64,000 nucleotides of DNA from an uncultured Candidatus Saccharibacteria bacterium (GCA_964413015.1 CAYPQZ010000014.1:459-64458), one strand, 5' to 3'; counted from the first letter of the stretch, positions 9,183 through 64,000 are shown. The notes: generated by a model not told the origin, from the letters alone. Numbers and translations: made by a program.

Positions 9183-9206
9183 TGTTAAAAATAAAGAGTG
9201 TTAATC

Positions 9207-9240: not shown

Positions 9241-9279
9241 TCTTCTTGAAAATGCGTTTTTGTGCGGTATAATGAAGCC

Positions 9280-11310: not shown

Positions 11311-11384
11311 AATTATCAATTATCAATTTTCAATTTTTATTAAATTATCAATTCTTTAATTTTCAAAAATAAGAAATTATATTC

Positions 11385-11663: not shown

Positions 11664-11666
11664 TAT

Positions 11667-13994: not shown

Positions 13995-14071
13995 TGGCGG
14001 GAGCGACCGGACTCGAACCGGCAACCTTCTGCGTGACAGGCAGATGCTCTGACCAATTGAGCTACACCCCC
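13995..14071 (-). tRNA. tRNA-Asp (GTC)
   Basis: Cloverleaf on the minus strand: acceptor GGGGGTG/CGCTCCC, anticodon loop CTGTCAC, T-loop TTCGAGT, CCA encoded. Confidence 0.85.
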
Positions 14072-14081
14072 TTATTTTTAG

Positions 14082-14155
<74 letters not shown>

Positions 14156-14261
14156 ACAATTATCTTGTAATTTGTGTGAGTAATTTGTAATTAGGGATAA
14201 ATTTTTACTTTAATACTTTCTTCCTCGCGCTAACTACTAAATACTAACTACCAAATACTCA

Positions 14262-14283
14262 AATTTTTGCGTCAGCAAAAATT
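14262..14283 (-). terminator. hairpin downstream of the minus-strand tRNA (possible terminator)
   Basis: atttttgc-gtca-gcaaaaat perfect 8-bp stem. On the minus strand it is followed by a U-rich tract. Confidence 0.35.
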
Positions 14284-14287
14284 TATG

Positions 14288-14358
14288 TTGCGGGGCCGGG
14301 AGTTGCACCCGGGTCTTGAGGTTATGGGCCTCATGAGATACTACTTCTCCACCCCGCA
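14288..14358 (-). tRNA. atypical tRNA with CAT anticodon (initiator-like?)
   Basis: Acceptor TGCGGGG/CCCCGCA (U1-A72), A11:U24, anticodon stem TGAGG/CCTCA, loop CCCATAA (C33), T-loop TGCAACT. Confidence 0.55.
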
Positions 14359-35005: not shown

Positions 35006-35357
35006 CCAAGCAAGTGGATAGTCGGTCGCCTTAGGCGACAGGAAAGTCCGGGCACCATATAATGGCAGTGGGTAACGCCCACCGTCCGCAAGGATAGGGA
35101 AAGTGCCACAGAGACAATGTTTCTTCATTTTAGGGGGAATCTCCTAAAAAGGGGTAAAAGTGAAAAGTGAGGGCCTAAGAATCCTCTCATCCGGCAGAAA
35201 TGTCGCGATGCGGTAAACCCTGCCTGGTGCAAGAGCAAAGTGTAGCTCGCTTGAGCCTGAGAGTAATCTCCGGCCTAGATAGATGACTATCCAAAACCCG
35301 CCTTTGCCCTACGGGCTTCGGCGAGGTGAGACAGAACCCGGCTTATAGCTTGCTTGG
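35006..35357 (+). ncRNA. rnpB: RNase P RNA (bacterial type A)
   Basis: P1 pairing ccaagcaag...cttgcttgg. Conserved GGAAAGTCCGGGC (P4 5' strand), ACAGAGA, AAAAGTGAAA and ACAGAACCCGGCTTA (P4 3' strand). Followed by a T-run. Confidence 0.85.
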
Positions 35358-35404
35358 GTTTTTTTATTCTTGATTTTTAGGTAAAAATCATTAAAATCAA
35401 AGTA

Positions 35405-47203: not shown

Positions 47204-47377
47204 AGACTTTCTATTATAGTCTTTATTAAATCCTTCTGCTTTGATATGATTAGAGCATTGGCGCTAGAAGAAAGACGAACATACTTAAGACAACTAAGCT
47301 TGCTAGAATTATCCAGGAAAAACGAAACAACTTTCTTTTAACAGATATTTTCATATTTAATTTTAGGATAACATAAA

Positions 47378-47779
47378 ATGATTCAGCCGGTCAAAAAAAC
47401 TTTTAAGAAGCTTCTCTATTCCAAGATATTTCTTTTTGCAGCTGCTCTCATTTTAATTTTTTTAGTTGTTGCTTTTGGCCGGGAAAGTTACCGGAAGTAT
47501 GAATTGAGTAAGGAGATTAACGATTTAGAAAAACAAATTCTTCAGCTAGAAAGCACTAATCAGCAAATGGCCAATTTGATGGATTATTTCAAAAAAGAGT
47601 CCTATCTTGAGAAAGAAGCCCGCTTGAAGCTTAATTTAAAGAAACCTGAAGAAAAAGTGGTTATCATTTTAGAAAGAGATAGTCTTTATAAAGAAGTCGA
47701 CAATAACGGTAATCAGGGCGATATTGATATTCCCCAAGATTCTAATTTCTGGAAATGGTGGGAATACTTTTTCCAATAA
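47378..47779 (+). CDS. septum formation initiator family protein (FtsB/DivIC/FtsL-like)
   Basis: N-terminal TM helix then a coiled coil (LSKEINDLEKQILQLESTNQQMANL...). Confidence 0.6.
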   Translation: MIQPVKKTFKKLLYSKIFLFAAALILIFLVVAFGRESYRKYELSKEINDLEKQILQLESTNQQMANLMDYFKKESYLEKEARLKLNLKKPEEKVVIILERDSLYKEVDNNGNQGDIDIPQDSNFWKWWEYFFQ

Positions 47780-47856
47780 TCTCCAAATCTTTGATTTGTT
47801 TAAATTATTGAGAACTCGCCGCAATTTTGCCAAAGGCAAAATTTGGGCGGGTAAAG

Positions 47857-47930
47857 GCGGGATTAGTATAGTGGTATTATACTTGCTTCCCAAGCAAGAG
47901 ACACGAGTTCGATCCTCGTATCCCGCTCCA
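47857..47930 (+). tRNA. tRNA-Gly (CCC)
   Basis: Acceptor GCGGGAT/ATCCCGC, anticodon stem CTTGC/GCAAG, loop TTCCCAA, T-loop TTCGATC, CCA encoded. Confidence 0.85.
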
Positions 47931-48002
47931 GCCCACGTAGCTCAGTGGTAGAGCAACTCTCTCGTAAAGAGTAGGTCGTCAGTTCAATCCTGACCGTGGG
48001 CT
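47931..48002 (+). tRNA. tRNA-Thr (CGT)
   Basis: GCCCACG TA GCTC AGTGGTA GAGC A ACTCT CTCGTAA AGAGT ... GTCAG TTCAATC CTGAC CGTGGGC T. Confidence 0.85.
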
Positions 48003-48039
48003 CATTTACTAAAATAGAGAGGTATGCTAAAATGACAAA

Positions 48040-48804
48040 ATGGAAGATTTAACCGGTAAATTGAAAGGTGAATATGATAAGCATAAGGCCATTCTATCCG
48101 TTTATGCCGGGGCCGGAGGGACTGACGCTCAAGACTGGGCGGAGATGCTTTTGAAGATGTATCTGAAATTTACCGCTAAAGAGAAATGGCCGGCTAAGGT
48201 GGTTCAGATTAAAGAAGGCAAAGAGGCTGGAATTAAAAACGCAACTTTAGTTATTGGACAATCTTATAGCTATGGCTTATTAAAAGGCGAGTCAGGTGTT
48301 CACCGTTTAGTACGCTTGTCTCCTTTTAATGCTGATAATCTCAGACATACTTCATTTGCTTTGGTTGAGGTTATGCCGGAGCTTGAAGAAATTAAGGAAA
48401 TTAATCTTAGATCGGAAGATTTACGGGTTGAAACCTATAAAGCCAGTGGACCGGGAGGCCAGTACGTTAATAAAACTGAGTCGGCTGTTCGGCTGACTCA
48501 TCTTCCTACCGGACTAACCGCCGCTTGCCAAAGTGAACGTTTGCAAGGAGAAAATAAAAAAAGAGCCATGAAATTGTTAGCCAGTAAGCTTCACCAGCAT
48601 CAATTAAAAGGCCGACAAAAGCAAAAGAATGAGTTACGTGGCCAGCCTCAGGCTGTTGAATGGGGGAGCCAAATCCGTTCTTATGTACTGCATCCTTATC
48701 AGATGGTCAAAGACCACCGGATTGGCGTTAAATCGGGCGATCCGAAAGCTGTTTTGAATGGCAAATTGGATAAATTTGTAAGGGGCTTTATTCAAAAGTT
48801 CTGA
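48040..48804 (+). CDS. prfB: peptide chain release factor 2, N-terminally truncated (domains 2-4 only)
   Basis: SPF stop-codon recognition motif (RLSPFNADNLRHTSF) and GGQ (SGPGGQYVNKTESAVRLTH). Begins ~20 aa before the AGAGGTDAQDW block, so ~110 aa of domain 1 are absent. Confidence 0.8.
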   Translation: MEDLTGKLKGEYDKHKAILSVYAGAGGTDAQDWAEMLLKMYLKFTAKEKWPAKVVQIKEGKEAGIKNATLVIGQSYSYGLLKGESGVHRLVRLSPFNADNLRHTSFALVEVMPELEEIKEINLRSEDLRVETYKASGPGGQYVNKTESAVRLTHLPTGLTAACQSERLQGENKKRAMKLLASKLHQHQLKGRQKQKNELRGQPQAVEWGSQIRSYVLHPYQMVKDHRIGVKSGDPKAVLNGKLDKFVRGFIQKF

Positions 48805-48814
48805 CAAAAATCTC

Positions 48815-49498
48815 ATGATAGTTTTTAAAAAAGTTTCCAAAATATATCTGCCTAACTGTCGAGCTCTGGATGATATTAATCTTGAAATTGACGATAAAGA
48901 ATTTGTCTCCATTGCCGGCCGTTCGGGCGCTGGGAAGTCAACCTTGATTAAGCTTTTAATTAAAGAAGATTTTCCGACAAAAGGAAACATTTTTTGGGGC
49001 AAACAGGACATCGGTCTTATCCGAGGCAGGGATTTGCCGATTTGGCGCAGGCAAATAGGCATGATTTTTCAAGACTTCCGCCTTTTGCCGAACAAAACTG
49101 CTTACGAAAATGTTGCTTTTGCCATGGAGGTAAGTGATTGGAAGAAACATGAAATTGAACGGGACGTGCCCCAACTTTTAAAACTGGTTAATCTGCTGGA
49201 CCGGGCGGATCATTTCCCCCATCAGCTTTCCGGCGGCGAACAGCAACGGGTGGCGATTGCCCGAGCCTTGGCGCATCGTCCGGATATTTTAGTAGCTGAC
49301 GAACCGACCGGCAATTTAGATTTGCTGCATACCTGGGAAATCATCCGGCTTTTAATTAAGATTAATGAGTTAGGAACAACGGTGGTTTTGTCCACTCATG
49401 ACCGTGAGATTATTAACGGTTTGGATAAACGGGTAATTACTATTGAAAAAGGGAAAATAATTAAAGATGACGAAAATGGAAAGTATATCCTATTTTAA
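48815..49498 (+). CDS. ftsE: cell division ATP-binding protein FtsE
   Basis: ABC ATPase Walker [10 protein letters not shown], signature LSGGEQQR, Walker B ILVADEPT; paired with the downstream FtsX. Confidence 0.85.
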
Positions 49499-49501
49499 TT
49501 C

Positions 49502-50410
49502 ATGTTTACATCCTTAGCTAGGTTAATAAAATCGGGCTGTCTGAATTCTTGGAGGAATAAATGGCTTTCAGTAGCCACCATTTTAGTTATGGGCTTGGCT
49601 ATTTTCGGCATTACTACCTTACTATTAATCAATGTTTTAATTGATTCCTTGATTACTTACTTAGAAGACAAGGTAGATGTTAGCGTGTATTTCAATTTAG
49701 GCGTTTCCGAGGAACAGGTTTTATCTGTTAGGGATAGTTTGGTTGAATTAAGCCAGGTGAAAAGCGTTGAGTATATTTCAACTGAAGAAGCGCTGAATAA
49801 TTTTAAGGAAAAACATAGAGACAATCAGGTTTTAATGCAAAGTTTGCAGGAATTGGACAGTAATCCCTTAGAAGCGGCTTTAAACATAAAGGCGCAGGTG
49901 ACTTCTCAATATGAATCAATAGTTAGCTTTTTGGAGAAAAAGGAGTATCAAGAAATTATTGACAAGATAAATTATCAGGAGAATCGAATAGCAATAGTTC
50001 GGCTGGCCTCAATCACTAATACCATTCGTCAGGTCGGTTTTGTTATTTTGCTTATCCTAGCCGTTCTGGCTGTCCTGGTTACCTTTAACACTATTCGTCT
50101 AACCATTTATAGCGCTCGCAAGGAAATTAAAGTGATGAAGCTGGTTGGCGCCAGCAATTGGTTTATCCGGGGGCCGTTTATTGTGGAAGGAGCGATTTAT
50201 GGGATTATCGCGGTTGCCTTAACCTTGACAGTATTCGTTCCTTTGCTCTGGTATTTCTCTCCTAGAATTACCGGATATCTGCCCGGAACCGACCTGTTCT
50301 ATTTTTTCCAGACTAACTTTCTGACTTTGCTGCTGGTTCAGCTGATTACCGGAATCCTTATGGGCACAATTAGCAGTTTGATCGCTATCCACAGATATTT
50401 GGAGAATTAA
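49502..50410 (+). CDS. ftsX: cell division permease-like protein FtsX
   Basis: TM1, large periplasmic loop, then three C-terminal TM helices (FtsX-like permease family). Confidence 0.75.
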   Translation: MFTSLARLIKSGCLNSWRNKWLSVATILVMGLAIFGITTLLLINVLIDSLITYLEDKVDVSVYFNLGVSEEQVLSVRDSLVELSQVKSVEYISTEEALNNFKEKHRDNQVLMQSLQELDSNPLEAALNIKAQVTSQYESIVSFLEKKEYQEIIDKINYQENRIAIVRLASITNTIRQVGFVILLILAVLAVLVTFNTIRLTIYSARKEIKVMKLVGASNWFIRGPFIVEGAIYGIIAVALTLTVFVPLLWYFSPRITGYLPGTDLFYFFQTNFLTLLLVQLITGILMGTISSLIAIHRYLEN

Positions 50411-50411
50411 T

Positions 50412-50482
50412 TGCCGGGTCGTCTAATGGTAGGACGACAGATTCTGGCTCTGTTAATCGGGGTTCGAGTCCCTGCCCGGCAG
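50412..50482 (+). tRNA. tRNA-Gln (CTG)
   Basis: TGCCGGG TC GTC TAATGGTAG GAC G ACAGA TTCTGGC TCTGT ... CGGGG TTCGAGT CCCTG CCCGGCA G. Confidence 0.8.
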
Positions 50483-50552
50483 CTGTTAAAAAAACATCAT
50501 ATCGTAGGGTTGCCTTTTTGACACTGAGAGTTTTTTATGTTAGCATTTTCTC

Positions 50553-50837
50553 ATGGCGGTTCCAAAGCAAAGACATACTAAATCAAGAAGAAATAAGAGA
50601 CGTTCTCACCATGCTTTGAATAAGAAGCATTTTTTTGCTTGTCCCAAGTGCGGCGAACCGGTTTTGCCTCACCGTGTCTGTCAGAACTGTGGAACTTACG
50701 CCGGCAAAGAGATGATTGACGTGATGGCTAAATTGACTAAAAAAGAAAAGAAGCAGAAAGAAAAAGAAATGGCCGCCCAAGAGAAAGAACAGGTCCATGA
50801 AAAGTCGTTAAATATAGAAGACCTGTCTAAAAAATAG
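50553..50837 (+). CDS. rpmF: 50S ribosomal protein L32 with K/E-rich C-terminal extension
   Basis: MAVPKQRHTKSRRNKRRSHHAL, zinc ribbon CPKCG...CQNCG. Confidence 0.8.
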   Translation: MAVPKQRHTKSRRNKRRSHHALNKKHFFACPKCGEPVLPHRVCQNCGTYAGKEMIDVMAKLTKKEKKQKEKEMAAQEKEQVHEKSLNIEDLSKK

Positions 50838-50906
50838 TAGCCCGTATTTTGTAGCTTGTATTTCGTACGAATCAAATACTAAATACTAAATACTAAATAC
50901 TAAACA

Positions 50907-51344
50907 ATGGCTAATCGTCATTTATCTCGTTCCGTTGCCATGCAGTCTCTTTATGAGTGGGATTTCAAAGGGAAAAACCCTGGTCAGTTAAAAGAAATCG
51001 TTAAACGGTCAATTAAAGAGTTTGCTCCAGGCCTGGAAGAAACCGATTTTGTCTGGCAAATAATTGACGGAGTGATTAAAAATTTACCCAAACTGGATAA
51101 GATCATTGAAAAATCGGCTCCAGAGTGGCCTCTTGAACAGATTACTGTCGTTGACCGTAATGTTTTAAGAATTGGGTTATACGAACTGCTTTTTGGCAGC
51201 CGGAACGAAGTTCCTCCAAAAGTGGCTATTAACGAGGCGATTGAATTAGCTAAAACCTTCGGCGGCGAATCTTCAGGCAAATTTATTAACGGGGTTTTAG
51301 GAACTGTTTACCGGGAAATTGGAGAACCCGGAAAAGACGAGTAA
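50907..51344 (+). CDS. nusB: transcription antitermination factor NusB
   Basis: [17 protein letters not shown]..., all-helical NusB fold length. Confidence 0.85.
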
Positions 51345-51461
51345 AATTTTGTAATTTTTAATTTTATGATTTTGTAAATAAATCTTAATTTCTAAGTTTT
51401 AAAAATTAAATCATTAAAAATTATTTAAAAATTAAAAATTGGAAATTAAAAATTTCCTCTT
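51345..51461. repeat. ~115-nt AT-rich direct repeat, copy 1 (5' of rnc)
   Basis: aaattttgtaatttttaattttatgattttgtaaataaatcttaatttctaag...aaaaattggaaattaaaaat. ~96% identical to 52149-52266. Confidence 0.85.
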
Positions 51462-52148
51462 ATGGCTTTATCTTCTTTGGAAAAATCTATTGGCGTTGAG
51501 TTTAAGAACAAGGATTTGCTTCAGCAGTCCTTGATCCATCGTTCCTATTTAAATGAAAATCCGGATTTCCGTTTAAAAGATAATGAACGGCTTGAATTTT
51601 TAGGAGACGCGGTGTTGGAAATGGCAGTTACCGAGCATCTTTACGATAATTATCCCAATCCGGAAGGCGAATTGACTAACTGGCGGGCCGCTTTGGTCAA
51701 TGCCAAAATGTTAGCCAAGGTGGCTAGTCGGCTAGAAGTAAACAACCATTTACTTTTGAGCCGCGGAGAGAAAAAAGATATTGGTAGGGCCCGTCAATAT
51801 ATTTTAGCCGACGCGTTTGAGGCCCTAATCGGAGCGATTTTTCTGGATCAGGGATACGATAAAGTCAGCAAGTTCATTGAAGGCAATATTTTAAAGGAAC
51901 TGCCCAAAATTATTTCGCAAAAGCTTTACAAAGATCCTAAAAGCGACTTTCAAGAGAGATCTCAGGAAAGGGTCGGAGTTACTCCTACATATGAAGTCCT
52001 TAAGGAATGGGGTCCTGACCATGCTAAAAACTTTATAGTCGGCCTTTATTTGGGAGAAGAATTAATAGCTCAAGGACAGGGCGTTTCCAAGCAGGAAGCC
52101 CAGGAAAAAGCGGCCGAAGAGGCCCTAAAGACGAAAAAATGGGAATAA
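51462..52148 (+). CDS. rnc: ribonuclease III
   Basis: RNase III signature ERLEFLGDAVLEMAVTEHLY and C-terminal dsRBD. Confidence 0.9.
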   Translation: MALSSLEKSIGVEFKNKDLLQQSLIHRSYLNENPDFRLKDNERLEFLGDAVLEMAVTEHLYDNYPNPEGELTNWRAALVNAKMLAKVASRLEVNNHLLLSRGEKKDIGRARQYILADAFEALIGAIFLDQGYDKVSKFIEGNILKELPKIISQKLYKDPKSDFQERSQERVGVTPTYEVLKEWGPDHAKNFIVGLYLGEELIAQGQGVSKQEAQEKAAEEALKTKKWE

Positions 52149-52266
52149 GAAAATTTTGTAATTTTTAATTTTATAATTTTGTAAATGAATCTTAATTTCT
52201 AATTTTTAAAAATTAAATCATTAAAAATTATTTAAAAATTAAAAATTGGAAATTAAAAATTAAGCT
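52149..52266. repeat. ~115-nt AT-rich direct repeat, copy 2 (5' of rpsP)
   Basis: Near-identical to copy 1; differs at ~5 positions and in the last ~15 nt. Confidence 0.85.
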
Positions 52267-52683
52267 ATGCTTACTATTCGTTTAATTAGAACAGGGAAAA
52301 AGAACAAATCCAATTTCAGAGTTATTCTTGCAGAAAAAACAGTTTCGCCTAAAAGCGGGAAGTTTTTAGAATTATTAGGGAATTACAATCCCCATCAGAA
52401 GGAGATTAGTTTTAAAAAAGAGCGGATAAAATACTGGATTTCCAAAGGAGCTAAGGCGTCTGATACCGTTCATAATCTGTTAGTGAGAGAAGGAGTAATT
52501 AAAGGTCCTAAAATTAAGAAAAAGATAAAAATTAAGAAGAAAAAAGCGGCAGAGGAACCAAAAGAGAAGGCTCCGGCGCAAGACCAAGTTTCTGATTCAA
52601 AAGACGTTGAGCAAAAAATTGACTCCGTAAAAAAAAACGGAGTTGACAAATCTGAAAAGAAGGAATATAATAAAGAAGATTAG
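52267..52683 (+). CDS. rpsP: 30S ribosomal protein S16 with Lys-rich C-terminal tail
   Basis: MLTIRLIRTGKKNKSNFRVILAEK. Confidence 0.9.
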   Translation: MLTIRLIRTGKKNKSNFRVILAEKTVSPKSGKFLELLGNYNPHQKEISFKKERIKYWISKGAKASDTVHNLLVREGVIKGPKIKKKIKIKKKKAAEEPKEKAPAQDQVSDSKDVEQKIDSVKKNGVDKSEKKEYNKED

Positions 52684-52770
52684 CAGTCTTATGGAAAAGG
52701 TCGAACTGCTATAAATGCGAAAATCTTGAATGAATTAGTCTACAATTAATTTCCGGTAACTGTTAAATTA

Positions 52771-53142
52771 TTGGAAATAATTGTTGGTTATAGAAATATG
52801 GCTAAGATGCCTACTGATCAAGAATTTCTGGAGTTTATTATCAAGTCCATAGTTTCTCACCCCGACGACGTTAAGGTAGTCCGAACCGTTGACGAGATGG
52901 GAGTCCTATTAAATCTTAAGGTTCACCCTGAAGATATGGGGCAGGTTATTGGACGAGAAGGATCTACTGCCAGGGCGATTCGAAGCATTCTTAGGGTAAT
53001 TGGCGTTAAGAATAATGCTCGAATTAATCTTAAGATTGAAGAGCCGGAAGGCGGCAGGGTCAATCGACCCCAGGAAAAGGAACCTACTTCTGAAGAGCCT
53101 AAGAAAGGCGTTGACGAAGTAGTTGAAGAGTTAAAACTGTAA
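52771..53142 (+). CDS. KH-domain RNA-binding protein (UPF0109/YlqC-like)
   Basis: FLEFIIKSIVSHPDDVKVV...GQVIGREGSTARAIRSIL with the GxxG KH motif. The true start is probably an internal Met (52798 or 52807). Confidence 0.78.
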   Translation: MEIIVGYRNMAKMPTDQEFLEFIIKSIVSHPDDVKVVRTVDEMGVLLNLKVHPEDMGQVIGREGSTARAIRSILRVIGVKNNARINLKIEEPEGGRVNRPQEKEPTSEEPKKGVDEVVEELKL

Positions 53143-53174
53143 AATTTCACTCTTTAATTTTGTAGAGTTTAGAA

Positions 53175-53207
53175 AGCCGTGCTATCATAATAGTACGGTT
53201 TTCTTCT
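53175..53207 (+). terminator. rho-independent terminator
   Basis: agccgtgcta-tcataa-tagtacggtt hairpin (with G-U pair) followed by ttttcttct. Confidence 0.5.
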
Positions 53208-53210
53208 ATT

Positions 53211-53223
53211 GGGGACTGTCCCC
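53211..53223. repeat. GGGGACTGTCCCC palindrome
   Basis: Same variant as at 32455-32482. Lies within the spurious 5' extension of the trmD ORF call. Confidence 0.6.
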
Positions 53224-53238
53224 AAAAATAAAATAGTC

Positions 53239-53898
53239 ATGCGGTTTGATATTATAACAATTTTTCCTGAGATATTTGGTTCATACTTCAATGAATCAAT
53301 CATTAAAAAGGCCCGGCAAAAAAAGTTGGTTAAAATTAACATTCACAATTTGCGGGATTATACTTCTGACAAACGTAAAAGCGTAGACGATAAACCATAT
53401 GGTGGCGGATTCGGCATGGTTTTAATAGCCGAGCCGATAAAAAAAGCTGTTGATTTTATCAAAAGGAAATCCAGGGTTAAAAAAAGAAAAATAATTTTGC
53501 TGTCGGCCAAGGGTAAGAAATTTGATCAAAAAATAGCCAAGAGATTTTCTAAATTGGAGCAGCTTGTTTTAGTCTGTGGTCGGTATGAAGGAGTTGATGA
53601 GCGAGTGGCTAAATATGTTGCTGATGAAGAAATTTCTATTGGTGACTATATCCTGACCGGCGGTGAGATCCCGGCCATGATTTTGGTGGATTCAATTACT
53701 AGATTAATTCCGGGGGTTATTACCGAGGGTTCGTTGGAAGAAGAAAGTTTTACTCGAAACGACAAACATAAAGAATATCCTCATTATACTCGTCCAGAAA
53801 CTATAATTATTGACGGCAAAAAAAGAAACGTTCCGAAAGTCCTTATATCCGGCAATCATCAAAAGATTAAAGAGTGGAAAAAGAAGTTAACCAAGTAG
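53239..53898 (+). CDS. trmD: tRNA (guanine37-N1)-methyltransferase
   Basis: MRFDIITIFPEIF, SPOUT knot motifs (GGGFGMV, VCGRYEGVDER, YILTGGE). Start moved from 53209. Confidence 0.9.
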   Translation: MRFDIITIFPEIFGSYFNESIIKKARQKKLVKINIHNLRDYTSDKRKSVDDKPYGGGFGMVLIAEPIKKAVDFIKRKSRVKKRKIILLSAKGKKFDQKIAKRFSKLEQLVLVCGRYEGVDERVAKYVADEEISIGDYILTGGEIPAMILVDSITRLIPGVITEGSLEEESFTRNDKHKEYPHYTRPETIIIDGKKRNVPKVLISGNHQKIKEWKKKLTK

Positions 53899-53967
53899 AA
53901 GAATTTTGAATATCTCTAATTTAAATTTCAACAAAGTTGAAATTTGTTTCAAAATTTCTCTACTTGG

Positions 53968-53996
53968 TTGACAGGAAAACTTGGATAATATAGAAT
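53968..53996 (+). promoter_or_regulatory. candidate rRNA promoter
   Basis: TTGACA-17 nt-TAGAAT ~100 nt upstream of the 16S 5' end. Preceded by the palindrome tttcaacaaagttgaaa. Confidence 0.4.
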
Positions 53997-54048
53997 AAAG
54001 AAGCTCTTTGATAATTTAATAAGCAATTGCAATTTTGTGCAGTTGTCC

Positions 54049-54083
54049 CAGCCCGCAATGCTTCGCATAGCGATGCAGGCGGG
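54049..54083. repeat. CCCGCAATGC..CATAG..GCAGGCGGG motif copy in the 16S leader
   Basis: cagcccgcaatgcttcgcatagcgatgcaggcggg. Confidence 0.6.
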
Positions 54084-54094
54084 CCAAATTAGTT

Positions 54095-56566
<2,472 letters not shown>

Positions 56567-56629
56567 CTATATATTTTTTGACAGGAACAGGTTTCTGTTG
56601 TCTGCTAAATATATGGGGTGTTGATACAG

Positions 56630-56657
56630 GTTGAGATATGAGAATTCTTATCTCAAC
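56630..56657. repeat. inverted repeat GTTGAGATA-N10-TATCTCAAC (candidate recombinase core site)
   Basis: gttgagatatgagaattcttatctcaac, 65 nt after the 16S 3' end and 40 nt before the first integrase ORF. Confidence 0.5.
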
Positions 56658-56695
56658 TAGTAGGTGTTGGCCGAAAAGCCTTAAATATCGGCCAT

Positions 56696-57730
56696 ATGGG
56701 ACAACTACACAAGATTTGCAATTTGACTAAAGAACCTTGTTTAATACAGACAGGGTTTTTTAGTTTTATGAATACACAACAATTACTATATAAGAAAGCA
56801 CCACGATCCATTGACATTTTTAATAGAAATACAAAGAAAGCACCACGATCTAGTAACAATTTAGCTATTTCAAGTATAATTCCTGAGTTTTTAATCTACG
56901 CTAAATTTGAAAAAAGATTTGCCAATGAGTCCATAATTAAATACCAAGACTGTTTTAGGGGTTTTATAAGAGAAGTTGGAGATGTTTTTTTAAGTGATTT
57001 AAATACAGAGCATTTTAGTCAATTAAAGCAGAATCTTTTTAGCCGGGGGATTAGTGAAGCAAGGGTAGCTAGTGTTATTTTCTCAATGAAGAGTTTATTA
57101 AATTATTGTAAAGAGGTTAAGCATTTAAAAGTAATTAGTTCTAGGAAAATAAGATCTCCAAGACGGCCCAGGAGGGAGGTTATTTTTTTAAGTAATGAAG
57201 AAATTAGAAAATTTATAAAAGTAATAGATATAAAATCAACTTATGGATTAAGATTCAGAACATTAGTTGAAGTTCTTCTTGGTACTGGAATGAGAATATC
57301 AGAAGCATTATCTTTAGATCGTGATTCAATTGATTATGCAAAACGAGAAGTTAAAATTATCGGTAAAGGGAATAAAGAAAGGATTGTGTTTTTTAATAAT
57401 AGATCTCTAGAGTGGATTAGAAAGTATCTATCCGAGAGATGGGATGCTGAACAACCTATATTTATAACGCATGGAAACAATAGACGATTAAGTCGTAGTG
57501 GCGTTATGAGAGATTTTAAGAGATACAGGGATAAAGCCGGTATTAAAAAGAAAGTTAGTCCTCATATACTTCGTCATACTGTAGCTACAAATCTACTTTT
57601 TAATGGTTGTCCAATTTCGCATGTAAAAGAAATTCTTGGCCATACGCGCTTAGAAACAACTTGTAAATATTATTTAGGATTAGATAAGCGAAAAGCCAAA
57701 CAAGCACATAATAAGTTTCTACAATATTGA
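56696..57730 (+). CDS. tyrosine site-specific recombinase (phage integrase family), copy 1
   Basis: Core-binding SAM-like N-domain. Catalytic R (RISEALSL), H-x-x-R (HILRHT), and LGH...TT.KYY with the Tyr nucleophile. Alternative start at 56768. Confidence 0.85.
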   Translation: MGQLHKICNLTKEPCLIQTGFFSFMNTQQLLYKKAPRSIDIFNRNTKKAPRSSNNLAISSIIPEFLIYAKFEKRFANESIIKYQDCFRGFIREVGDVFLSDLNTEHFSQLKQNLFSRGISEARVASVIFSMKSLLNYCKEVKHLKVISSRKIRSPRRPRREVIFLSNEEIRKFIKVIDIKSTYGLRFRTLVEVLLGTGMRISEALSLDRDSIDYAKREVKIIGKGNKERIVFFNNRSLEWIRKYLSERWDAEQPIFITHGNNRRLSRSGVMRDFKRYRDKAGIKKKVSPHILRHTVATNLLFNGCPISHVKEILGHTRLETTCKYYLGLDKRKAKQAHNKFLQY

Positions 57731-57772
57731 TAGAAATAAAATCAAAAGTATCTTTTTCGTAGGTATATAGGG

Positions 57773-57801
57773 TTGACAATCTTTAAAAAGAAATGATAAT
57801 A
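57773..57801 (+). promoter_or_regulatory. sigma70-like promoter
   Basis: TTGACA-16/17 nt-GATAAT immediately upstream of the 57809 ORF. Confidence 0.4.
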
Positions 57802-57808
57802 TGTCAAT

Positions 57809-58234
57809 ATGAAAGATAAAAGGAATAATCTGATTATTAGAAAATCTGATTATAAAAGGAATAAAGGAGCCTTTATCTGGGAAGGTAAAAAAGAAGATTA
57901 TACAGAGCTTAAGGAAACAAGAAAATGGAGATGTCTCAAGTGCCACCGAATACTTGCAAATAATGTAGAGAATGATATAATTACGGTTAAAGGAGAAGGA
58001 AGACAAGAAATTAAGATCAGATTTAAAGCAATACGATGTATTTGCCCAGGTTCAAAAAGAAAAGGAACTGAAGGATGTAATACTGATAACAGACTTGTCT
58101 CTTATGTAGATCTCCTGTCGGAAAAATACGAACCGATTCAACTCGTTAAAACTGATTTAAAAATACAAAAAGAAATCGAAGAAAGTAGAAATAAAAATAT
58201 TCAGAATAAGATAGAAGAATTGAGTAATTTGTAA
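57809..58234 (+). CDS. hypothetical Cys-rich (zinc-ribbon-like) protein between the two recombinase genes
   Basis: CLKCH..., CICPGS..., GC spacing suggests a Zn ribbon. No family assignment. Confidence 0.45.
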   Translation: MKDKRNNLIIRKSDYKRNKGAFIWEGKKEDYTELKETRKWRCLKCHRILANNVENDIITVKGEGRQEIKIRFKAIRCICPGSKRKGTEGCNTDNRLVSYVDLLSEKYEPIQLVKTDLKIQKEIEESRNKNIQNKIEELSNL

Positions 58235-58316
58235 TTAACAAGATGGTCAGGTTAGGAGGATGCTATATGTACCCTCTTAAAAAAATCTAGTATTTGGCTA
58301 GTTGTAAAACGTGTTA

Positions 58317-58352
58317 TTAATCCCGTGCATAATTTTATGTGCGGGATTTTTA
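58317..58352 (+). terminator. hairpin plus T-run (terminator)
   Basis: atcccgtgcat-aatttt-atgtgcgggat (11-bp stem with two G-U pairs) followed by ttttaatt. Confidence 0.45.
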
Positions 58353-58355
58353 ATT

Positions 58356-59288
58356 ATGAAGATAAGAGAATTACTAAAAGTAATAAAAGAGGGAACAAAA
58401 GGAAAGAAATACCTTATTAGTATTTTAATACCTGATTTTATAGACTGGCTTTCCCTGGATTTAAATTTGGCTCCTCAAACATTAGAGAAGCATAAGGAAT
58501 GTCTCGATCATGTTATTCGTTATATTGGAGATTTAGACATAAGAGAGATGACATCTGTTGATGTTTTAAATATAAAAAAAGAGATGAATAAAAAGAAATT
58601 AAGCCCAGCACGTATTAATAGTATTATTTTTGCACTACGAAAATTATTAAGATTTTGCGATTCTGTTTTAAATATTAAGGTCCTTGATCCAGCTAAAATG
58701 ATTCCATTAAAAATCAAACAAAAGCAGGTTGTATATTTAACTAATAAAGAAATCGATATATTTAGAAAAGCAATTAATACATCAACAAGATACGGGAAGC
58801 GTTTTAGAGCCTTGTTTGAAACTTTGCTTAGTTCGGGTTTACGCATAAGCGAAGCTTTGTCTTTAGATCGTGATTCAATTAATTACGAAAAGAAAGAGGC
58901 TAATATTGTTGGTAAAGGAGGAAGACCTAGGACTGTTTATTTCAATGATGATGCAATAACTCGAATCAATATTTATTTAGAAACTAGATGGGACGATGAA
59001 CCAGCACTTTTTGTTACTCATGGTGGTGAACCAACTAGATTAAAAAGAGGAAGCGTTGAGCAAGAATTTAGTAGGTATAGGAAATTTGTAAATATAAAGA
59101 AAAAAGTTACTGCCCATACTCTAAGACATTCGTTCTGCACAAATTTACATCATCATGGACTTGATATCCTATGGATTAAAGAATTAGCCGGGCATAGAGA
59201 TATTCAAACTACAGCTAAATATTACATTGGTACAAGCAAAAAGAAAATCAAAGAAGCCCACCGTAAATATTTGAATTTTAATAATTAA
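58356..59288 (+). CDS. tyrosine site-specific recombinase, copy 2 (paralog of 56696)
   Basis: Same architecture and motifs (LRISEALSLDRDSI, HTLRHSF, LAGH...TTAKYY); ~45% identity to copy 1 by eye. Start moved from 58311. Confidence 0.85.
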   Translation: MKIRELLKVIKEGTKGKKYLISILIPDFIDWLSLDLNLAPQTLEKHKECLDHVIRYIGDLDIREMTSVDVLNIKKEMNKKKLSPARINSIIFALRKLLRFCDSVLNIKVLDPAKMIPLKIKQKQVVYLTNKEIDIFRKAINTSTRYGKRFRALFETLLSSGLRISEALSLDRDSINYEKKEANIVGKGGRPRTVYFNDDAITRINIYLETRWDDEPALFVTHGGEPTRLKRGSVEQEFSRYRKFVNIKKKVTAHTLRHSFCTNLHHHGLDILWIKELAGHRDIQTTAKYYIGTSKKKIKEAHRKYLNFNN

Positions 59289-59326
59289 TTAATAAGTTAA
59301 TTTTCGTTTAAGGAGTCAGACATAAC

Positions 59327-60850
59327 TTGAAAAAGTTAGTTACTTATAACGGTAGCATGTCTGGCTTCCTAAATGGGAATAGCTACCGTTATATGAATAA
59401 AGAATTAGGAACATTTAATGAGATAATAGAAGAAGCAAAGAAGAATAAAACATTTAATACGGGGTCAATAGTACCTAATGAAAGCGAAGTAGAAGAAATG
59501 GAAAGAGATGATGAATATTCAAGAGAAGAAAAGAAAAAGAAAATCATAAAAGCTAAAGCAAAAATTAAAGATAATATTAAGCAGAAAAAGAAAGTGCAAA
59601 AATTACTTTTAAATCCAAGGTTACTTTATAACATAAAAAGTCAATTTGAGAAATTAGGGATTGCTGGAGAAACTAGAAATTCTTTAATGATTTATTTGGC
59701 TCTAACAAGTCGAATGATGGACAAACCAATAAGTATAGTTAATAAAGGTGATTCTTCTTCCGGTAAATCTTATATGATTAATTTGATTCTAAGGCTTTTT
59801 CCTAAAAACGCTTATATTGAAATGACTGCCGCAACTGCTCAAAGCTTTTATCATGCTGGAAAGGATGATTTTAAACATAAGATTATTATTATTTATGAGA
59901 GAAAGGGCTCAGAGAATAGCGATTATTCAATTCGTTCTTTTCAATCCGAAGGAAATTTAAAGCTTCAAATTACAGTGAAGAATAAAAAAACAGGCAATTT
60001 CGAAGTTAAACGCAAAGAGGTACTCGGGCCAGTTGGCTTTTTAACAACTACTACTGATCCACACATTCATGATGAAAATGAAACCAGGGTTTTTAGCCTA
60101 TACACCAATGAGAGTGTAATACAAACGGCAAGAATATTTAAAGCAAGTAGTGCGGGATATAAAGGAATTAATCCAATTAGTAATCTCAGATTAAAGAAAT
60201 TTAAAAAACTCCAGCGATTATTAAAAACATATAAGATTTCAATTCCTTATGTGGACGACCTAATAAGCGTTTTCCCTCATAAACCAGTTAGAGTTAGAAG
60301 AGATTTTCCAAGATTTCTTACTTTAATATCGGTTGTTACTTTACTACACCAACATCAAAGAGAAAAAAAAATTATTAAAAAAGAAGAATATTTAGTGTCA
60401 AGTCTAGCTGATTATTATATCGCCAAGATTATCGCTGAAAGAATGTTAAAGCAAACTATTTTTGAGATAGCTCCAAAGACAAAACAAGTTATTAAAGTCG
60501 CCAAAAAGATTATTAATTTAAAAATTAAAAAGCAAACCCTAAATGCTAAGAGTGGGATAAGTGTAATGGCCGGGCTAAATCCAACCTTTAATATTACAGA
60601 ATTAGCCAGAAAGATTGGATGGGAGTATAAAACAACTTACAAATGGTTCAAACCAGCGTTAGAGAAAGGTTATTTTACCATAGAAGAAGAACAGAGAGGT
60701 AGACAAGCTGCAACGTATAAAATCAATAAAATGAAAAATAATCAAATAATATTGCCAGAGGTTAATAATATGATTAAGAAATATCCGCTTAATAAAGAAA
60801 GAATCTATAATCCAATTACAGGAGAATACTTGGATTTAGGTAAAAAGTGA
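59327..60850 (+). CDS. P-loop NTPase, putative plasmid/phage replication (primase-helicase/D5-like) protein
   Basis: Walker A KGDSSSGKSY, and a Walker B-like IIIIYER. Size and context fit replication proteins of mobile elements. Family is uncertain. Confidence 0.5.
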   Translation: MKKLVTYNGSMSGFLNGNSYRYMNKELGTFNEIIEEAKKNKTFNTGSIVPNESEVEEMERDDEYSREEKKKKIIKAKAKIKDNIKQKKKVQKLLLNPRLLYNIKSQFEKLGIAGETRNSLMIYLALTSRMMDKPISIVNKGDSSSGKSYMINLILRLFPKNAYIEMTAATAQSFYHAGKDDFKHKIIIIYERKGSENSDYSIRSFQSEGNLKLQITVKNKKTGNFEVKRKEVLGPVGFLTTTTDPHIHDENETRVFSLYTNESVIQTARIFKASSAGYKGINPISNLRLKKFKKLQRLLKTYKISIPYVDDLISVFPHKPVRVRRDFPRFLTLISVVTLLHQHQREKKIIKKEEYLVSSLADYYIAKIIAERMLKQTIFEIAPKTKQVIKVAKKIINLKIKKQTLNAKSGISVMAGLNPTFNITELARKIGWEYKTTYKWFKPALEKGYFTIEEEQRGRQAATYKINKMKNNQIILPEVNNMIKKYPLNKERIYNPITGEYLDLGKK

Positions 60851-61261
60851 TGAGGTTCTTGTAGGTATGTTTTATGGATACGGAATAACCAACTTGCACT
60901 TTTATAAGAAAATAAACTTAATATTTTGTTACTACACTTCTATAAGAATGAACAAGAGAATATTAGTTTAATGGCTCTATTAATCAATTAAAAATAAAAA
61001 AAGTGGAAGTAGAGATTTCTATATTTACAAAAACATATCCATAAAGCTTTTGTATTGTACGTAGAAGCGTAGTAACAAATAAAAATATGGATAATTCTAA
61101 TATTATATGAAAAAAAAGAAGCAAAAAGAAAAAGAATCTTTAAGAATTAAGAGATTAAAAGCTAAAAATAGAAGAGACATTGGATATTCAATGGTTGATT
61201 TACTTCCTTTAAGCTTGAGTATTAGTAAAAAATTGAATAAGAAATAGTTTTATATTAATCC

Positions 61262-61810
61262 ATGAATAACAAATCTGTCAGAAATCGTCAGAAAATAACA
61301 CCAAAACAAATAGATTACTGGACGGAACCAAAACGGCAACTTTTTGAAATGGTTCTTGAAAGTTCTTTAAAGCGTCATGAGATGGCCAAGGAACTTAATA
61401 TAAGTACTAGAACGGTTCAAAGATGGATTAAGGATCCTTCGTTCCATGAGGCCTTAAGCATGAGCTCTGATGCTTGGAAAATGCAGATTACAGCACGGCG
61501 CTTAGATCTTATTAAAGAGCTTATAAAAGGATTAAGAAAAAGAATGGAAATATCAATAAATCAGGTATCTCCAGAAGTTTTACTAACAGAATATAGAAAG
61601 CTTTTATTTGATATCCCATTGAGAATATCTTCGGTTGCTATTCAACAAAATGTTTTCCCTAAAAAAATAACATCGCTTCCATGTTTATCTCCTAAAAAAA
61701 TAAAAATTGTAGAAAAAGCTGTTTTAAAATCACAGGGATATAACGAATTAAATGTCTCAAAAGAAGATATAGAAGCTGTTAGGAAAGAAAATGCATTAAA
61801 TAAACAGTAG
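61262..61810 (+). CDS. HTH-domain protein (terminase small subunit-like or regulator)
   Basis: AKELNISTRTVQRWIKDP helix-turn-helix near the N-terminus. Confidence 0.5.
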   Translation: MNNKSVRNRQKITPKQIDYWTEPKRQLFEMVLESSLKRHEMAKELNISTRTVQRWIKDPSFHEALSMSSDAWKMQITARRLDLIKELIKGLRKRMEISINQVSPEVLLTEYRKLLFDIPLRISSVAIQQNVFPKKITSLPCLSPKKIKIVEKAVLKSQGYNELNVSKEDIEAVRKENALNKQ

Positions 61811-61860
61811 TGTAAGCGCAAGAAAAGATTCTTTTTCTTAAAAATTAATAAGAGAAAAAT

Positions 61861-61896
61861 AAAAAAAGACCGACAGGGTATTAGCCCATCGGCCTT
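61861..61896 (-). terminator. rho-independent terminator (minus strand; weakly bidirectional)
   Basis: On the minus strand: ggccgaugggcuaauacccugucgguc followed by U7, just after the stop of the 61913-62278 gene. Confidence 0.55.
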
Positions 61897-61912
61897 TCTT
61901 GCTTCTCAGCGA

Positions 61913-62278
61913 CTAGAAGGGGAGATCTTCAATTTTTTCTATAACAGGAATTTCTCCAATTTCGTCAATCTGTTTTGTGAAATTACATCCAGGATAGGTA
62001 ATACATCCAAGGAAAGGACCATTTTTACCACGCCTTAATACCATTGGAGCTCCACATTTTTCGCAAAGCTGTTCTTCTTTGTTTTTCTTTTTATCATTAT
62101 TTGCTGTCATATTGCCATTAAATACTTTCTTTAAATCTTTGTATAGCTTATCGGCTTCTTGAACTGAATCTGCGCGAATATTTATCATTAGCGATTTTCT
62201 AATCACCTTCCCATCTGGTTTTTTATCAATTGTCTCATTTATCTGAATTCGATTAAAATCATGATTAATTGTAGCCAT
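61913..62278 (-). CDS. small protein with topoisomerase-type C4 zinc finger
   Basis: CEKCGAPMVLRRGKNGPFLGCITYPGC matches the zf-C4_Topoisom pattern. Confidence 0.55.
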   Translation of the reverse strand: MATINHDFNRIQINETIDKKPDGKVIRKSLMINIRADSVQEADKLYKDLKKVFNGNMTANNDKKKNKEEQLCEKCGAPMVLRRGKNGPFLGCITYPGCNFTKQIDEIGEIPVIEKIEDLPF

Positions 62279-62375
62279 AATTTTTATTAGAATAAATTAA
62301 TTGATTATTTCTAATTAAGCTGTTCGACTTTTTAGAATTGTAAATTCTAACAGCTTACAAGATAAAAGCGTAATC

Positions 62376-62768
62376 TTACTTTTCTTTTTCAATCAGCTTT
62401 AGCATTTTCATTGATAGCCATTTTCTTTTGTTAAAGATAATATGATCGTAAAGTTCAATATCTAGGATCTCGCCAGCTTTCTTTAATCTTTGCGTGACTT
62501 CTATATCATCCTGCGATGGTTCAAGATCACTGCTTGGATGATTGTGCAGTACAATTATCATCTTTGCTGAATTCATCACTGCTGGTTTAAATGTTTCTCT
62601 TGGATGGACGAGACAAGCATTGAGAGTTCCTAAACTAATCAATTCTGCTTTTGTAATCTTTGTTCGTGAGTCAAAATAGATTCCAATAAAATGCTCTTTA
62701 TACCAATCGGTTATTAATGTTCTAGCTATTCTTACTGATTCAATTGGATGATCAATAATTTTAGCCAT
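62376..62768 (-). CDS. RadC-like JAB/MPN domain protein
   Basis: JAMM-like motif HNHPS..EPS..D in a 130-aa protein; typical of RadC in mobile elements. Confidence 0.72.
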   Translation of the reverse strand: MAKIIDHPIESVRIARTLITDWYKEHFIGIYFDSRTKITKAELISLGTLNACLVHPRETFKPAVMNSAKMIIVLHNHPSSDLEPSQDDIEVTQRLKKAGEILDIELYDHIIFNKRKWLSMKMLKLIEKEK

Positions 62769-62794
62769 AATATTTTCCTTTCTCCCTTGCGGGA

Positions 62795-62980
62795 TTAGTA
62801 TTCTATATCAATCGCAAAATTGTGATTGTTGACCTTATCACATGCATCTTCCCAAAGCTTGAACCATTCCTGATTTGTCTTTGGTTTTTCTCTTTTTTCT
62901 TCTTCAAGGATTGAGTCCATGGTTTCAACAATAATCTTATTCTTTGTTTCCGAATCAAGGTCATGAAAGTAAATTTTCAT
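62795..62980 (-). CDS. hypothetical small protein
   Basis: 61-aa ORF in operon-like arrangement with the RadC gene. Confidence 0.3.
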   Translation of the reverse strand: MKIYFHDLDSETKNKIIVETMDSILEEEKREKPKTNQEWFKLWEDACDKVNNHNFAIDIEY

Positions 62981-63051
62981 TTTTTTTCACCTCCCTTCTT
63001 TTATTTGCCAGGTATCGACCTACCCGGCTTTAATTAATTTATCGACTTTTT

Positions 63052-63258
63052 TTAGCTAACGCAGTGAACGTTTCTTTCAATATCTTTTCTATCTAGTTCT
63101 ACTAATGAAGGATGTTTCATTAATTTTTCAACCGCATCCTTTTTGTCATCAGCTTTTATCTCAATTTCAAAGTCTGAAGCTGCGCAATGGCTTTTTAAAA
63201 AACAGGCATAAATCTTTTGCCTGCTTTTTGATCTCTTAGTCATATTTATCATCACCAC
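63052..63258 (-). CDS. hypothetical small protein
   Basis: 68-aa ORF. No family. Confidence 0.3.
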   Translation of the reverse strand: MVMINMTKRSKSRQKIYACFLKSHCAASDFEIEIKADDKKDAVEKLMKHPSLVELDRKDIERNVHCVS

Positions 63259-64000
63259 CTTTCTTGGTTATTTAGGAAATACTCTAGCTAAAAGAATTTC
63301 ATTCAATATATTTACTTCGCTCAAACCATTTCCAAATTACTCCCAAGACCCCGCGTTTTGCTTAAGCGATAACAACGCTGTATCAATAGCCAAGCTTTCG
63401 TCTGGAAATTTGAGTAGTAAAATTTATTAAGGAACTGGATTTTAATATTATTTAAAAAAGCAAAAACAGGGATATGTTTAAAGTTGGACTTTAAAATCCT
63501 TAAATAATAATTTTCTGGTCCACGCTAAGAAGATAATATCTAAATCTTTTAGTGGATTTTAATTTAGAAAACATATTTTGAGGGACTCAAAATTGTTGCT
63601 AAATTAAAAAAGAAAATTATTATTTAACTCAAAGGAATAAAACTTTAAACATATTTCAGTTTTTGCTATAATTTTTTATTAAAATCAGTTTCTTATTTAA
63701 ATTTCTACTCAAATTTTACAGATGAAAGCGTATGGCTTTACAGTGTTGTTATGTTTAAGCAAGACGCTTTGGATGTAATTTGGAATATATGGTTTCGAAG
63801 TAAATATATTAATGAAAAATTGATAGAGTATTGGTTTTGATTGAAGTAAATAAGGATGCAATAAAAAAAAATAGAGATTACTCTCTATTTTTTAATATCC
63901 ATTCCCCCCAGAGGTTATTTTTCAGAGATATTTAATTAGTACTCTGTGCGAAAAATTTCTGTTTTTGTTAAAATTTCAGGCCTAACTCTTGAAATTATTA

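Follow-up and report, generated by a model that had tools for sequence, protein, structure and literature searches.

What is the AT-rich DNA that begins where the 16S rRNA gene ends in an uncultured Candidatus Saccharibacteria bacterium, and how did it come to lie there? The question is raised by a stretch of 64,000 nt (GCA_964413015.1 CAYPQZ010000014.1:459-64458), which we call the window and whose coordinates are used throughout. A first-pass annotation of this stretch had proposed an integrated element with two paralogous tyrosine recombinases, here named Int1 and Int2, next to the 16S 3' end. In our reading, the DNA from 56570 to at least 66208 is probably a plasmid-like integrative element, which site-specific recombination at the 16S rRNA 3' terminus would have brought into a chromosome of ~40% GC. 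The window belongs to the Joint Genome Institute (JGI) contig ML8_10000174 (111,559 bp), which ends 2208 nt past the window (window coordinate 66208), still at 22-32% GC.

The 16S rRNA gene junction and the empty allele

The host part of the window has a GC content of 40.4% over positions 1-54094, where windows of 7.4 kb average 40.5% (standard deviation 1.0, minimum 38.4). Over 56570-66208 the value is 29.3%, with the change point at 56570. The shift towards AT that had been noticed near 56.6 kb is thus real and lasts to the contig end, and the accompanying switch to mobile-element functions is borne out by the families found (recombinases, a Walker-A nucleoside triphosphatase (NTPase), a helix-turn-helix (HTH) protein, a zinc ribbon protein and RadC). 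The start of the element had to be corrected: it had been placed ~60 nt past the 16S terminus because the 16S end itself had been set ~60 nt early (~56510). The 16S 3' end reads GGATCACCTCCTTTCT at 56553-56568, and the foreign DNA starts at 56570.

A look-up with the LAGLIDADG protein encoded in the 16S intron led to an allele without the insertion, present on a contig of 284 kb (L007) and in four similar places, and so provided the strain lacking the element that had been called for as a check. L007 and window positions 45817-56569 differ by one single-nucleotide polymorphism (SNP) in 10,753 nt; the two run together to 56569 and part at 56570, straight after CACCTCCTTTCTA, where the host spacer of the empty allele begins with ATTTTTTTTCTAAG. 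In L007, the 16S gene is followed by the spacer, a small disrupted region, tRNA-Ile, a mechanosensitive-channel gene, 23S, 5S and then ordinary genes, of 35-48% GC. Alleles with and without an insertion starting right after CACCTCCTTTCTA coexist in the population. This is a presence/absence polymorphism with its breakpoint at the end of an RNA gene, the pattern of integrative elements that target the 3' ends of such genes.

The junction itself recurs in other assemblies. Contigs L008 (317 kb) and L010 (from Logan) end exactly at 56569, and the element-bearing Logan contig L002 begins at 56540; these ends represent k-1 overlaps and mark a fork of the assembly graph at 56569/56570. Two further assemblies (L013 and L014) carry 112 and 119 nt of host-identical 16S, respectively, followed by low-GC DNA, while L002 carries 28 nt. 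Since the same junction is found in contigs of several assemblies, it is real DNA and not the choice of a single assembler.

A sister element was found on contigs from unrelated samples, with an Int1 that is 86-88% identical, an Int2 that is 74% identical and a replication protein that is 83% identical to those of the window. The gene order is the same, except for a cysteine-rich open reading frame (ORF) that is present only in the window. The sister element lies directly after a different 16S gene (~86% identical), with the same junction (TTTCTA followed by TATATTTTTTGACAG). In its host (L109), the upstream order is rpmF, nusB, rnc, rpsP, KH, trmD and 16S as here, at 25-31% GC, and in an AT-rich relative without the element (L106), 16S is followed by the trailer, an amidohydrolase-like gene, tRNA-Ile, the channel gene and 23S. 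The GC content of 29% and the type of the trailer point to an acquisition from AT-rich relatives (~28% GC) carrying the sister element, as judged from sequence. The composition of the element is like that of these relatives and unlike that of the present host, which fits a recent transfer into a lineage of 40% GC. The same genes at this position in relatives of matching composition had been named beforehand as a sign of ancestral, non-mobile DNA. In form this situation exists, in the ~28% GC relatives with the sister element, but mobility stands, as both alleles occur in the host population here.

The first ~190 nt of the insert resemble the host trailer (67% identity), and even more so the trailer of the sister element (81%), so that the trailer appears to travel with the element. 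Element and host trailers both contain the box TGGGGTGTYGATA, a hairpin in which three to four pairs have changed in a compensatory manner between the two, a strand GGGACAACTACACAAGATT(T)GCAA and a final hairpin with a T-run. In the element, the stem strand GGGACAACTACACAAGATTTGCAA is located at 56698-56721 and the hairpin with T-run at 56733-56761. The trailer strand is complementary to a leader strand, TTGCAATTTTGTGCAGTTGTCCC, just upstream of 16S. The predicted leader-trailer duplex has an energy of -58.3 kcal/mol with the trailer of the element, versus -56.6 with the native trailer and -39.8 +/- 5.1 with shuffled sequences. This predicted pairing is the classical 16S processing stem, kept by the copy on the element, which by this comparison makes up for the 3' part displaced from its target. 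The stem also shows covariation at one position, with GGGACAACTACAC of the element trailer fitting the CCC of the host leader (with GGG), while the sister lineage has CTC with GAG. The host-type pairing in the window element is suggestive, but no proof, of a trailer matched to its present host.

Relatives of Int1 and the terminal core of 16S rRNA

Int1 starts 199 nt past the core, and the integrase gene thus adjoins the RNA-proximal junction. It has 2841 homologues at E < 1e-20, the best 120 of which are 51-91% identical. A scan of species-representative genomes yielded 80 loci, and the closest 64 (L026-L089) were analysed, with identities of 40-68% over the best-matching segment (mostly 44-58%). 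The hosts are Saccharibacteria, Doudnabacteria, Moranbacteria and other members of the candidate phyla radiation (CPR), as well as Acidobacteria, Deltaproteobacteria, Rokubacteria and others. An exact 12-mer, CACCTCCTTTCT, is located 207-392 nt upstream of the integrase and on the same strand in 48 of the 64 loci, and most of the remaining loci have too little upstream sequence. In 17 CPR loci this 12-mer is the end of a real 16S gene (12 complete genes and five for which the contig starts inside the 16S end). As a control, none of 80 integrase loci on viral contigs (30-42% identity) has the 12-mer upstream, with two occurrences in 1.24 Mb.

Some of these relatives show direct repeats at the 16S end. 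In the Saccharibacteria locus L040, an exact direct repeat of 187 nt, starting exactly with CACC, flanks a 4.9-kb unit of integrase and cargo, and ordinary genes (M23 peptidase, ZIP transporter, PilM) are found past the second repeat. Locus L052 contains an exact repeat of 31 nt that is followed by a homologous but diverged trailer, with the copies 5.9 kb apart. Tandem arrays starting from the 16S end occur in four CPR genomes (CAWINB010000004.1, CAYODY010000011.1, JARLHZ010000016.1, and JBAZXV010000002.1), the first of which is organized as 16S-core-Int, core-Int, core-Int within 30 kb. The left limit given by L040 and the right limit given by the comparison of the window with L007 confine the exchange to the 13-bp CACCTCCTTTCTA. 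The earlier suggestion of an att site in the rRNA 3' region is thus backed by the distribution of the 12-mer, the repeats, the tandem arrays and the control.

Whether Int1 marks a cross-phylum, Xer-like clade with the 3'-terminal 13 nt of 16S rRNA as its recombination core is, in our view, evenly balanced. In such a clade, CPR members would use the real 16S end as attB and stack plasmid-like and defence elements in tandem, each with a surrogate trailer, and elsewhere the core would lie within multi-recombinase modules and integron-like arrays. The Int1 group is widespread and apparently undescribed: the searchable literature, of which coverage is incomplete and in which an earlier description is possible, gave no description of integrases targeting the 16S 3' end.

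Int1 and Int2 are, by their sequences, members of the tyrosine recombinase superfamily (PF00589). The catalytic R-K-HxxR-H-Y residues are present in both, being invariant in an alignment of 24 Int1 sequences and aligned in Int2. An N-terminal SAM-like core-binding domain is recognized in Int2 (PF02899, 7e-5), and Xer profiles span residues 60-340 of both proteins. The two are 38% identical (E 1e-83), so that two intact paralogous recombinases on the same strand are indeed present. Int2 shares 41-44% identity with members of the Int1 clade and 74% with its orthologue in the sister element L016, and is preceded directly by a terminator-like hairpin (58319-58348). The long ORF of Int1 starts at 56696 and encodes 344 aa, with the first 24 codons inside the trailer-like RNA. 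The likely start is 56768, giving 320 aa, because the upstream start lies inside this RNA-like region and the closest homologues are 320 aa long.

The closest solved structures to Int1 are XerD (1a0p) and XerA (5hxy). Int1 scores below the NCBIfam cut-offs (XerA 188.6 vs. 220, XerD 176.7 vs. 329.6, XerC 171.1 vs. 335), and Int2 scores lower still. Int1 is no housekeeping recombinase either, as the empty allele has no copy and a Doudnabacteria genome has three within 30 kb. The IntI profile TIGR02249 reaches 99.3 bits versus a cut-off of 265, as two separate stretches, which does not fit an integron integrase. The GmtY profile reaches 18.6 bits versus a cut-off of 340, and there are two recombinases only, with the Cys-rich ORF between them, which does not fit a recombinase trio. 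The 5' coding region of Int1 contains two 17-nt direct repeats, AAGAAAGCACCACGATC. Both read AAGAAAGCAGTGCGATC in the sister element L016, i.e., they changed together, which hints at a role at the DNA level, e.g., as protein-binding sites.

Some side observations concern the relatives of Int1. Further recombinases lie near the core in L048, L054, L056, L057, L060, L063, L070, L073 and others (~8600-11800 in each). In Acidobacteria, the core lies between two co-oriented recombinases, often followed by a third, convergent one, and in Deltaproteobacteria a convergent recombinase directly follows the Int1-like gene. The Arenicellales locus L055 (OZ242007.1) contains three repeats of ~85 nt at 3489, 7151 and 9674, each ending with the core as CACCTCCTT(T/C)C and spaced 2.5-3.7 kb apart. 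The Int1-like gene follows the last repeat, the units between the repeats open with homologous ORFs and there is no 16S gene nearby, an organization resembling an integron array. The cargo of relatives includes restriction-modification, Abi and toxin-antitoxin genes. The LOOT RNA motif (RF03000) is present in the cargo of 16S-end elements of three Saccharibacteria (L040, 13416-13533; L052, 4399-4512; L079, 13300-13417). Finally, ~280 residues of chain 14 of PDB entry 9i5v (401 aa) can be aligned with Xer-type recombinases (E 9e-24 to Int1). The chain was deposited as the ribosome-associated inhibitor RaiA; this looks like a ribosome-associated protein with a recombinase-like domain.

Proposed mechanism, alternatives and known systems

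In the proposed mechanism, Int1 would exchange strands inside the 13-bp core common to attP and the 16S end. At attL, the surrogate trailer would keep the leader-trailer processing stem and hence a working 16S precursor, and the native trailer, tRNA-Ile, 23S and 5S would have moved beyond attR. The predicted attR consists of the far end, CACCTCCTTTCTA and ATTTTTTTTCTAAGAAAAAAGATTGGGG, and the predicted attP of the far end, the core and TATATTTTTTGACAGG. The excised form may replicate as an episome by means of the Walker-A NTPase and a non-coding region of ~780 nt. This is suggested by the homologues of the NTPase, which are fused to primase domains in small mobile elements, and by the conservation of the non-coding region. 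Int2 could be a multimer resolvase or an accessory of Int1 rather than the main integrase, since relatives with a single integrase (L040) integrate at the same core, but this is a guess that might equally turn out wrong. Of the two origins suggested earlier for the recombinases, a functional pair or a composite element, a recent composite does not apply, since the pair is kept in the sister element (Int2 74%, Int1 88% identity). A hairpin with T-run follows the trailer in both alleles, and a protein gene lies between 16S and 23S in the empty allele. From these two features we infer a separate transcription of 16S in this lineage, with the consequence that insertions at the site would be tolerated.

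A number of results weigh against this reconstruction. The attR of the window element was not recovered, as contig L001 ends at 66208 and L002 at 66038, both still in low-GC cargo. A repeat search over the whole low-GC stretch (56570-66208) gave no second copy of the 16S end, and the far boundary with a direct repeat of the 16S-proximal sequence, which had been named as a check, was not found up to the contig end at 66208. Near-matches to the core at 62986 and 63251 were rejected, being the complements of Shine-Dalgarno sites of minus-strand genes. The final 39 nt before the contig end have no exact match in metagenome_contigs, a collection that lacks even the source contig, and no homologue was found for the cut-off last ORF (103 aa) and hence no contig running past 66208. 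None of the contigs shows the order far end, core and trailer expected of attP or a circular junction, and L002 ends without circular overlap. The sister contig L022 runs for 11.7 kb without a second core. The sequence to the right of the core is TATATTTT here, versus the A/GGGAG that is usual in the clade, and in non-CPR members the 12-mer is found away from 16S, often between two recombinase genes, where it may be an attP-like site of an element integrated in another way, a remnant of a tandem or a site put to a different use. In a crude test, duplex energies at nine other CPR loci were indistinguishable from those of shuffled sequences, with the exception of L040, and the idea of a surrogate trailer is therefore kept to this lineage and L040.

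The DNA might instead have entered by homologous recombination, or be a separate replicon with its own full or partial 16S copy, and the junction would then reflect shared rRNA sequence and not an integrase. We consider this improbable. Host and sister lineage do have 24 identical nt at the 16S end in common, their trailers are homologous and the element carries a replication module, but the contig of 111 kb leads from host genes across the whole 16S gene into the element. The element-side contigs start with 112-119 nt of 16S only, so that they alone do not give the length of 16S on these molecules, and attR was not found, but the 284-kb and 317-kb host contigs have no fork upstream of or inside 16S, and the breakpoint is precisely the 13-mer that lies upstream of the Int1 clade in 48 of 64 loci and bounds the repeats of L040 and L052.

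Less probable still is an assembly chimera, with low-GC DNA from another AT-rich relative that has a similar 16S end. The same junction is found in four independent assemblies, and the 112-119 nt of 16S (helix 44/45) on L013 and L014 are host-identical over a stretch in which the 16S of the sister lineage differs at many positions. In its favour, rRNA genes are classic misassembly sites, AT-rich relatives of the same gene order carry the sister element after 16S and another contig (L003) looks chimeric, but the 24 nt common to both lineages are too short to mislead assemblies at k of at least 31. Least credible is a fixed remnant of old, vertically inherited chromosomal DNA that is not currently mobile, for which the sister element occupying this position in relatives of host-like GC and the lack of an excised form among the contigs would speak, but against which stand the presence and absence alleles one SNP apart in 10.7 kb, the 11-point GC gap to the host and the intact and conserved recombinases and replication gene.

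As an integrative element, this DNA is most readily compared to the islands and prophages at tRNA and tmRNA 3' ends (P4- and lambda-type integrases; Islander/TIGER). Shared features are an integrase gene beside attL, a crossover in the 3' region of a structural RNA gene, an element-borne substitute for the displaced 3' portion and, here in relatives, direct repeats and tandem arrays. In contrast, the target is the 16S rRNA 3' terminus, the restored part is the precursor trailer and not mature RNA, and the integrase, of Xer-like type, is short at ~310-320 aa and lacks an obvious arm-binding domain. The island targets described for TIGER/Islander are tRNA/tmRNA, protein-coding and intergenic, with no mention of rRNA genes (PMC7192596, PMC12424338). 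Integrative plasmids (pSAM2-type AICEs, the integrative conjugative elements of actinomycetes; archaeal pT26-2 and pSSVi-like) are likewise small elements with a replication protein and a tyrosine integrase, presumably free or integrated. The window element differs from them in having no recognized transfer genes, two recombinases, 16S instead of a tRNA as target and a primase-helicase-type NTPase without the primase part. XerC, XerD and XerA dimer resolvases provide the best profile matches, the closest structures, the two-domain layout and the catalytic residues, but Int1 falls below their equivalog cut-offs, is absent from the empty allele, occurs in several copies per genome in relatives and is associated with the 16S terminus and not with dif.

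Integrons and the rAID-1 elements of Bacteroidales (bioRxiv 10.1101/471110) also combine an Xer-like recombinase with adjacent low-GC cargo; the relative L055 has site-separated cassettes by its integrase, and the cargo of relatives often consists of defence genes. Differences are that an IntI-specific insertion is missing, that the units come with an integrase of their own and that the recombination site is the 16S terminus. Multi-recombinase elements (RIT/TRT trios, BIM pairs, SE with IntA/IntB, and GInts) have two or more adjacent recombinases, as does the window element, and two or three are found in its non-CPR relatives. The window pair, however, is parted by the Cys-rich ORF, and no terminal inverted repeats were seen. 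To our knowledge, none of these families has been reported to target rRNA genes. Eukaryotic rDNA elements (R2 and similar) resemble the present case in using a highly conserved rRNA sequence as a safe, always-present target, but they are retrotransposons that disrupt 28S by target-primed reverse transcription, whereas here a DNA recombinase would be at work and the mature 16S sequence is intact.

If the proposed mechanism is true, the 16S gene end as a regular target would be a new class of attachment site, and replacing the processing trailer of a precursor would be a new way to spare the target. It would also help to explain the frequent separation of 16S and 23S by foreign genes in CPR genomes, and mark the stretch that follows 16S as a hotspot at which defence and plasmid cargo gathers. 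As a very large share of bacteria have the core sequence, an integrase recognizing it could serve as a broad-host-range landing tool for genetically intractable organisms. For binning and 16S-linked metagenome assembly there is a warning, as such elements fork assembly graphs exactly at the 16S end.

Other genes of the element and its surroundings

The features of the 16S region and of the element are listed in Table 1.

Table 1. Positions of the 16S rRNA gene, the proposed attachment core and the features of the element in window coordinates.
Feature	Position	Strand	Basis or remark
16S leader strand TTGCAATTTTGTGCAGTTGTCCC	54027..54049	+	predicted to pair with the trailer strand into the processing stem
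16S rRNA gene (target)	54095..56569	+	Rfam RF00177, 1296 bits
16S exon 1	54095-55462	+	limits from intron-less relative L109
16S intron	55463-56430	+	limits from intron-less relative L109
16S exon 2	56431 to ~56567	+	limits from intron-less relative L109
Proposed crossover core CACCTCCTTTCTA (16S rRNA 3' terminus, anti-Shine-Dalgarno region, attL core)	56557..56569	+	allele comparison, L040 repeat, clade 12-mer
Putative surrogate 16S 3' trailer	56570..56761	+	homologous to host trailer; conserved hairpins
Int1, Xer-like tyrosine recombinase, 320 aa, 16S-core-associated clade	56768..57730	+	PF00589 2.8e-39
Two 17-nt direct repeats	56792-56808 and 56834-56850, 42 nt apart	+	repeat search; inside Int1 5' coding region
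Cys-rich ORF, 141 aa	57809..58234	+	no family match; absent from sister element
Int2, paralogous Xer-like tyrosine recombinase, 310 aa	58356..59288	+	PF00589 7.9e-31
Replication-type Walker-A NTPase, 497 aa	59357..60850	+	PF27228, weak
46-aa ORF and 182-aa HTH protein	61107..61810	+	weak transposase, excisionase and small-terminase HTH matches; kept in L016 and L022
Zn_ribbon_Top1 protein	61913-62278	-	PF01396 5e-15
RadC/JAB	62376-62768	-	PF04002 1.4e-36
61-aa ORF and 66-aa ORF	within 61913..63252	-	gene calls
Conserved non-coding region	63259..64000, on to ~64040 beyond the window	.	27-nt inverted repeat

The Walker-A NTPase is, on the basis of sequence similarity, homologous to the C-terminal part of primase-helicase fusions. 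Its homologues at 33-48% identity have PrimPol/PriCT_1, Toprim or DnaG domains fused ahead of the shared region, and they are encoded in small CPR elements with serine recombinases. Profile searches detected no primase family in the 497-aa protein itself, which also had no match to solved structures, and PF27228 is not marked (E <= 1e-5) in the protein of the sister element. The conserved non-coding region is a candidate origin or regulatory region: it is 82% identical to L022 over ~780 nt, as high as the coding backbone, and has no Rfam match. No conjugation or transfer genes were recognized in the element, and 56570-66208 contains no repeated cassette-separating sites as would be found in an integron array. 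A phage origin is unlikely, with no relative of the replication protein in IMG/VR and a nearest viral integrase of 42% identity.

Past the window, the contig encodes five small ORFs; hydrophobic, membrane-like stretches occur in some, and no confident family match was obtained for any. A GC-rich stem-loop of ~80 nt with a T-run is located at 64079-64159 (L001 2050-2130), where the homology to the sister element stops; no Rfam family matches it. On the sister contig L022, the cargo comprises DUF6804, several membrane proteins and, at 10696-11763, the N-terminal region of a divergent Hsp70 and a GrpE-like protein whose N-terminus is hydrophobic. The latter two were rejected as host boundary genes, as 104 and 31 bits are too low for DnaK and GrpE, the N-terminus is membrane-like and there is no host synteny. 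Contig MLSed_10034617 (L003) matches window positions 63470-61564 with an 85-bp deletion at 61883-61967 and continues with a TonB-dependent receptor and pyrroloquinoline quinone (PQQ) genes; it is probably a chimeric assembly with its break inside the HTH gene.

The 16S gene is split near E. coli position 1400 by a compact intron of 968 nt. The intron contains a Rfam group II D1-D4 match (RF01998, 55787-55879, 58.7 bits), an ORF for a LAGLIDADG homing endonuclease (PF00961, 55817-56356) and a domain-V-like hairpin at ~56369-56402. The Rfam coordinates of 16S (54095-55494) were rejected, since the end of the model had been aligned across the intron. Another LAGLIDADG intron, nearer to the 16S 3' end, is present in the relative L106/L108, and L109 is intron-less. 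A GC-rich hairpin in the leader, CCCGCAATGCTTCGCATAGCGATGCAGGCGGG (54053-54083), recurs with 31 identical nt in the 23S region of the empty allele (L007 15243-15273), and a hairpin similar to it is found in the spacer (L007 10975-11010) beside what looks like the 5' half of a tRNA and a GIY-YIG ORF that is disrupted. Ordinary features of the host DNA in the window are a class A RNase P RNA and six tRNA genes (35006-35361; 13995-14358; 47857-48003; 50412-50483).

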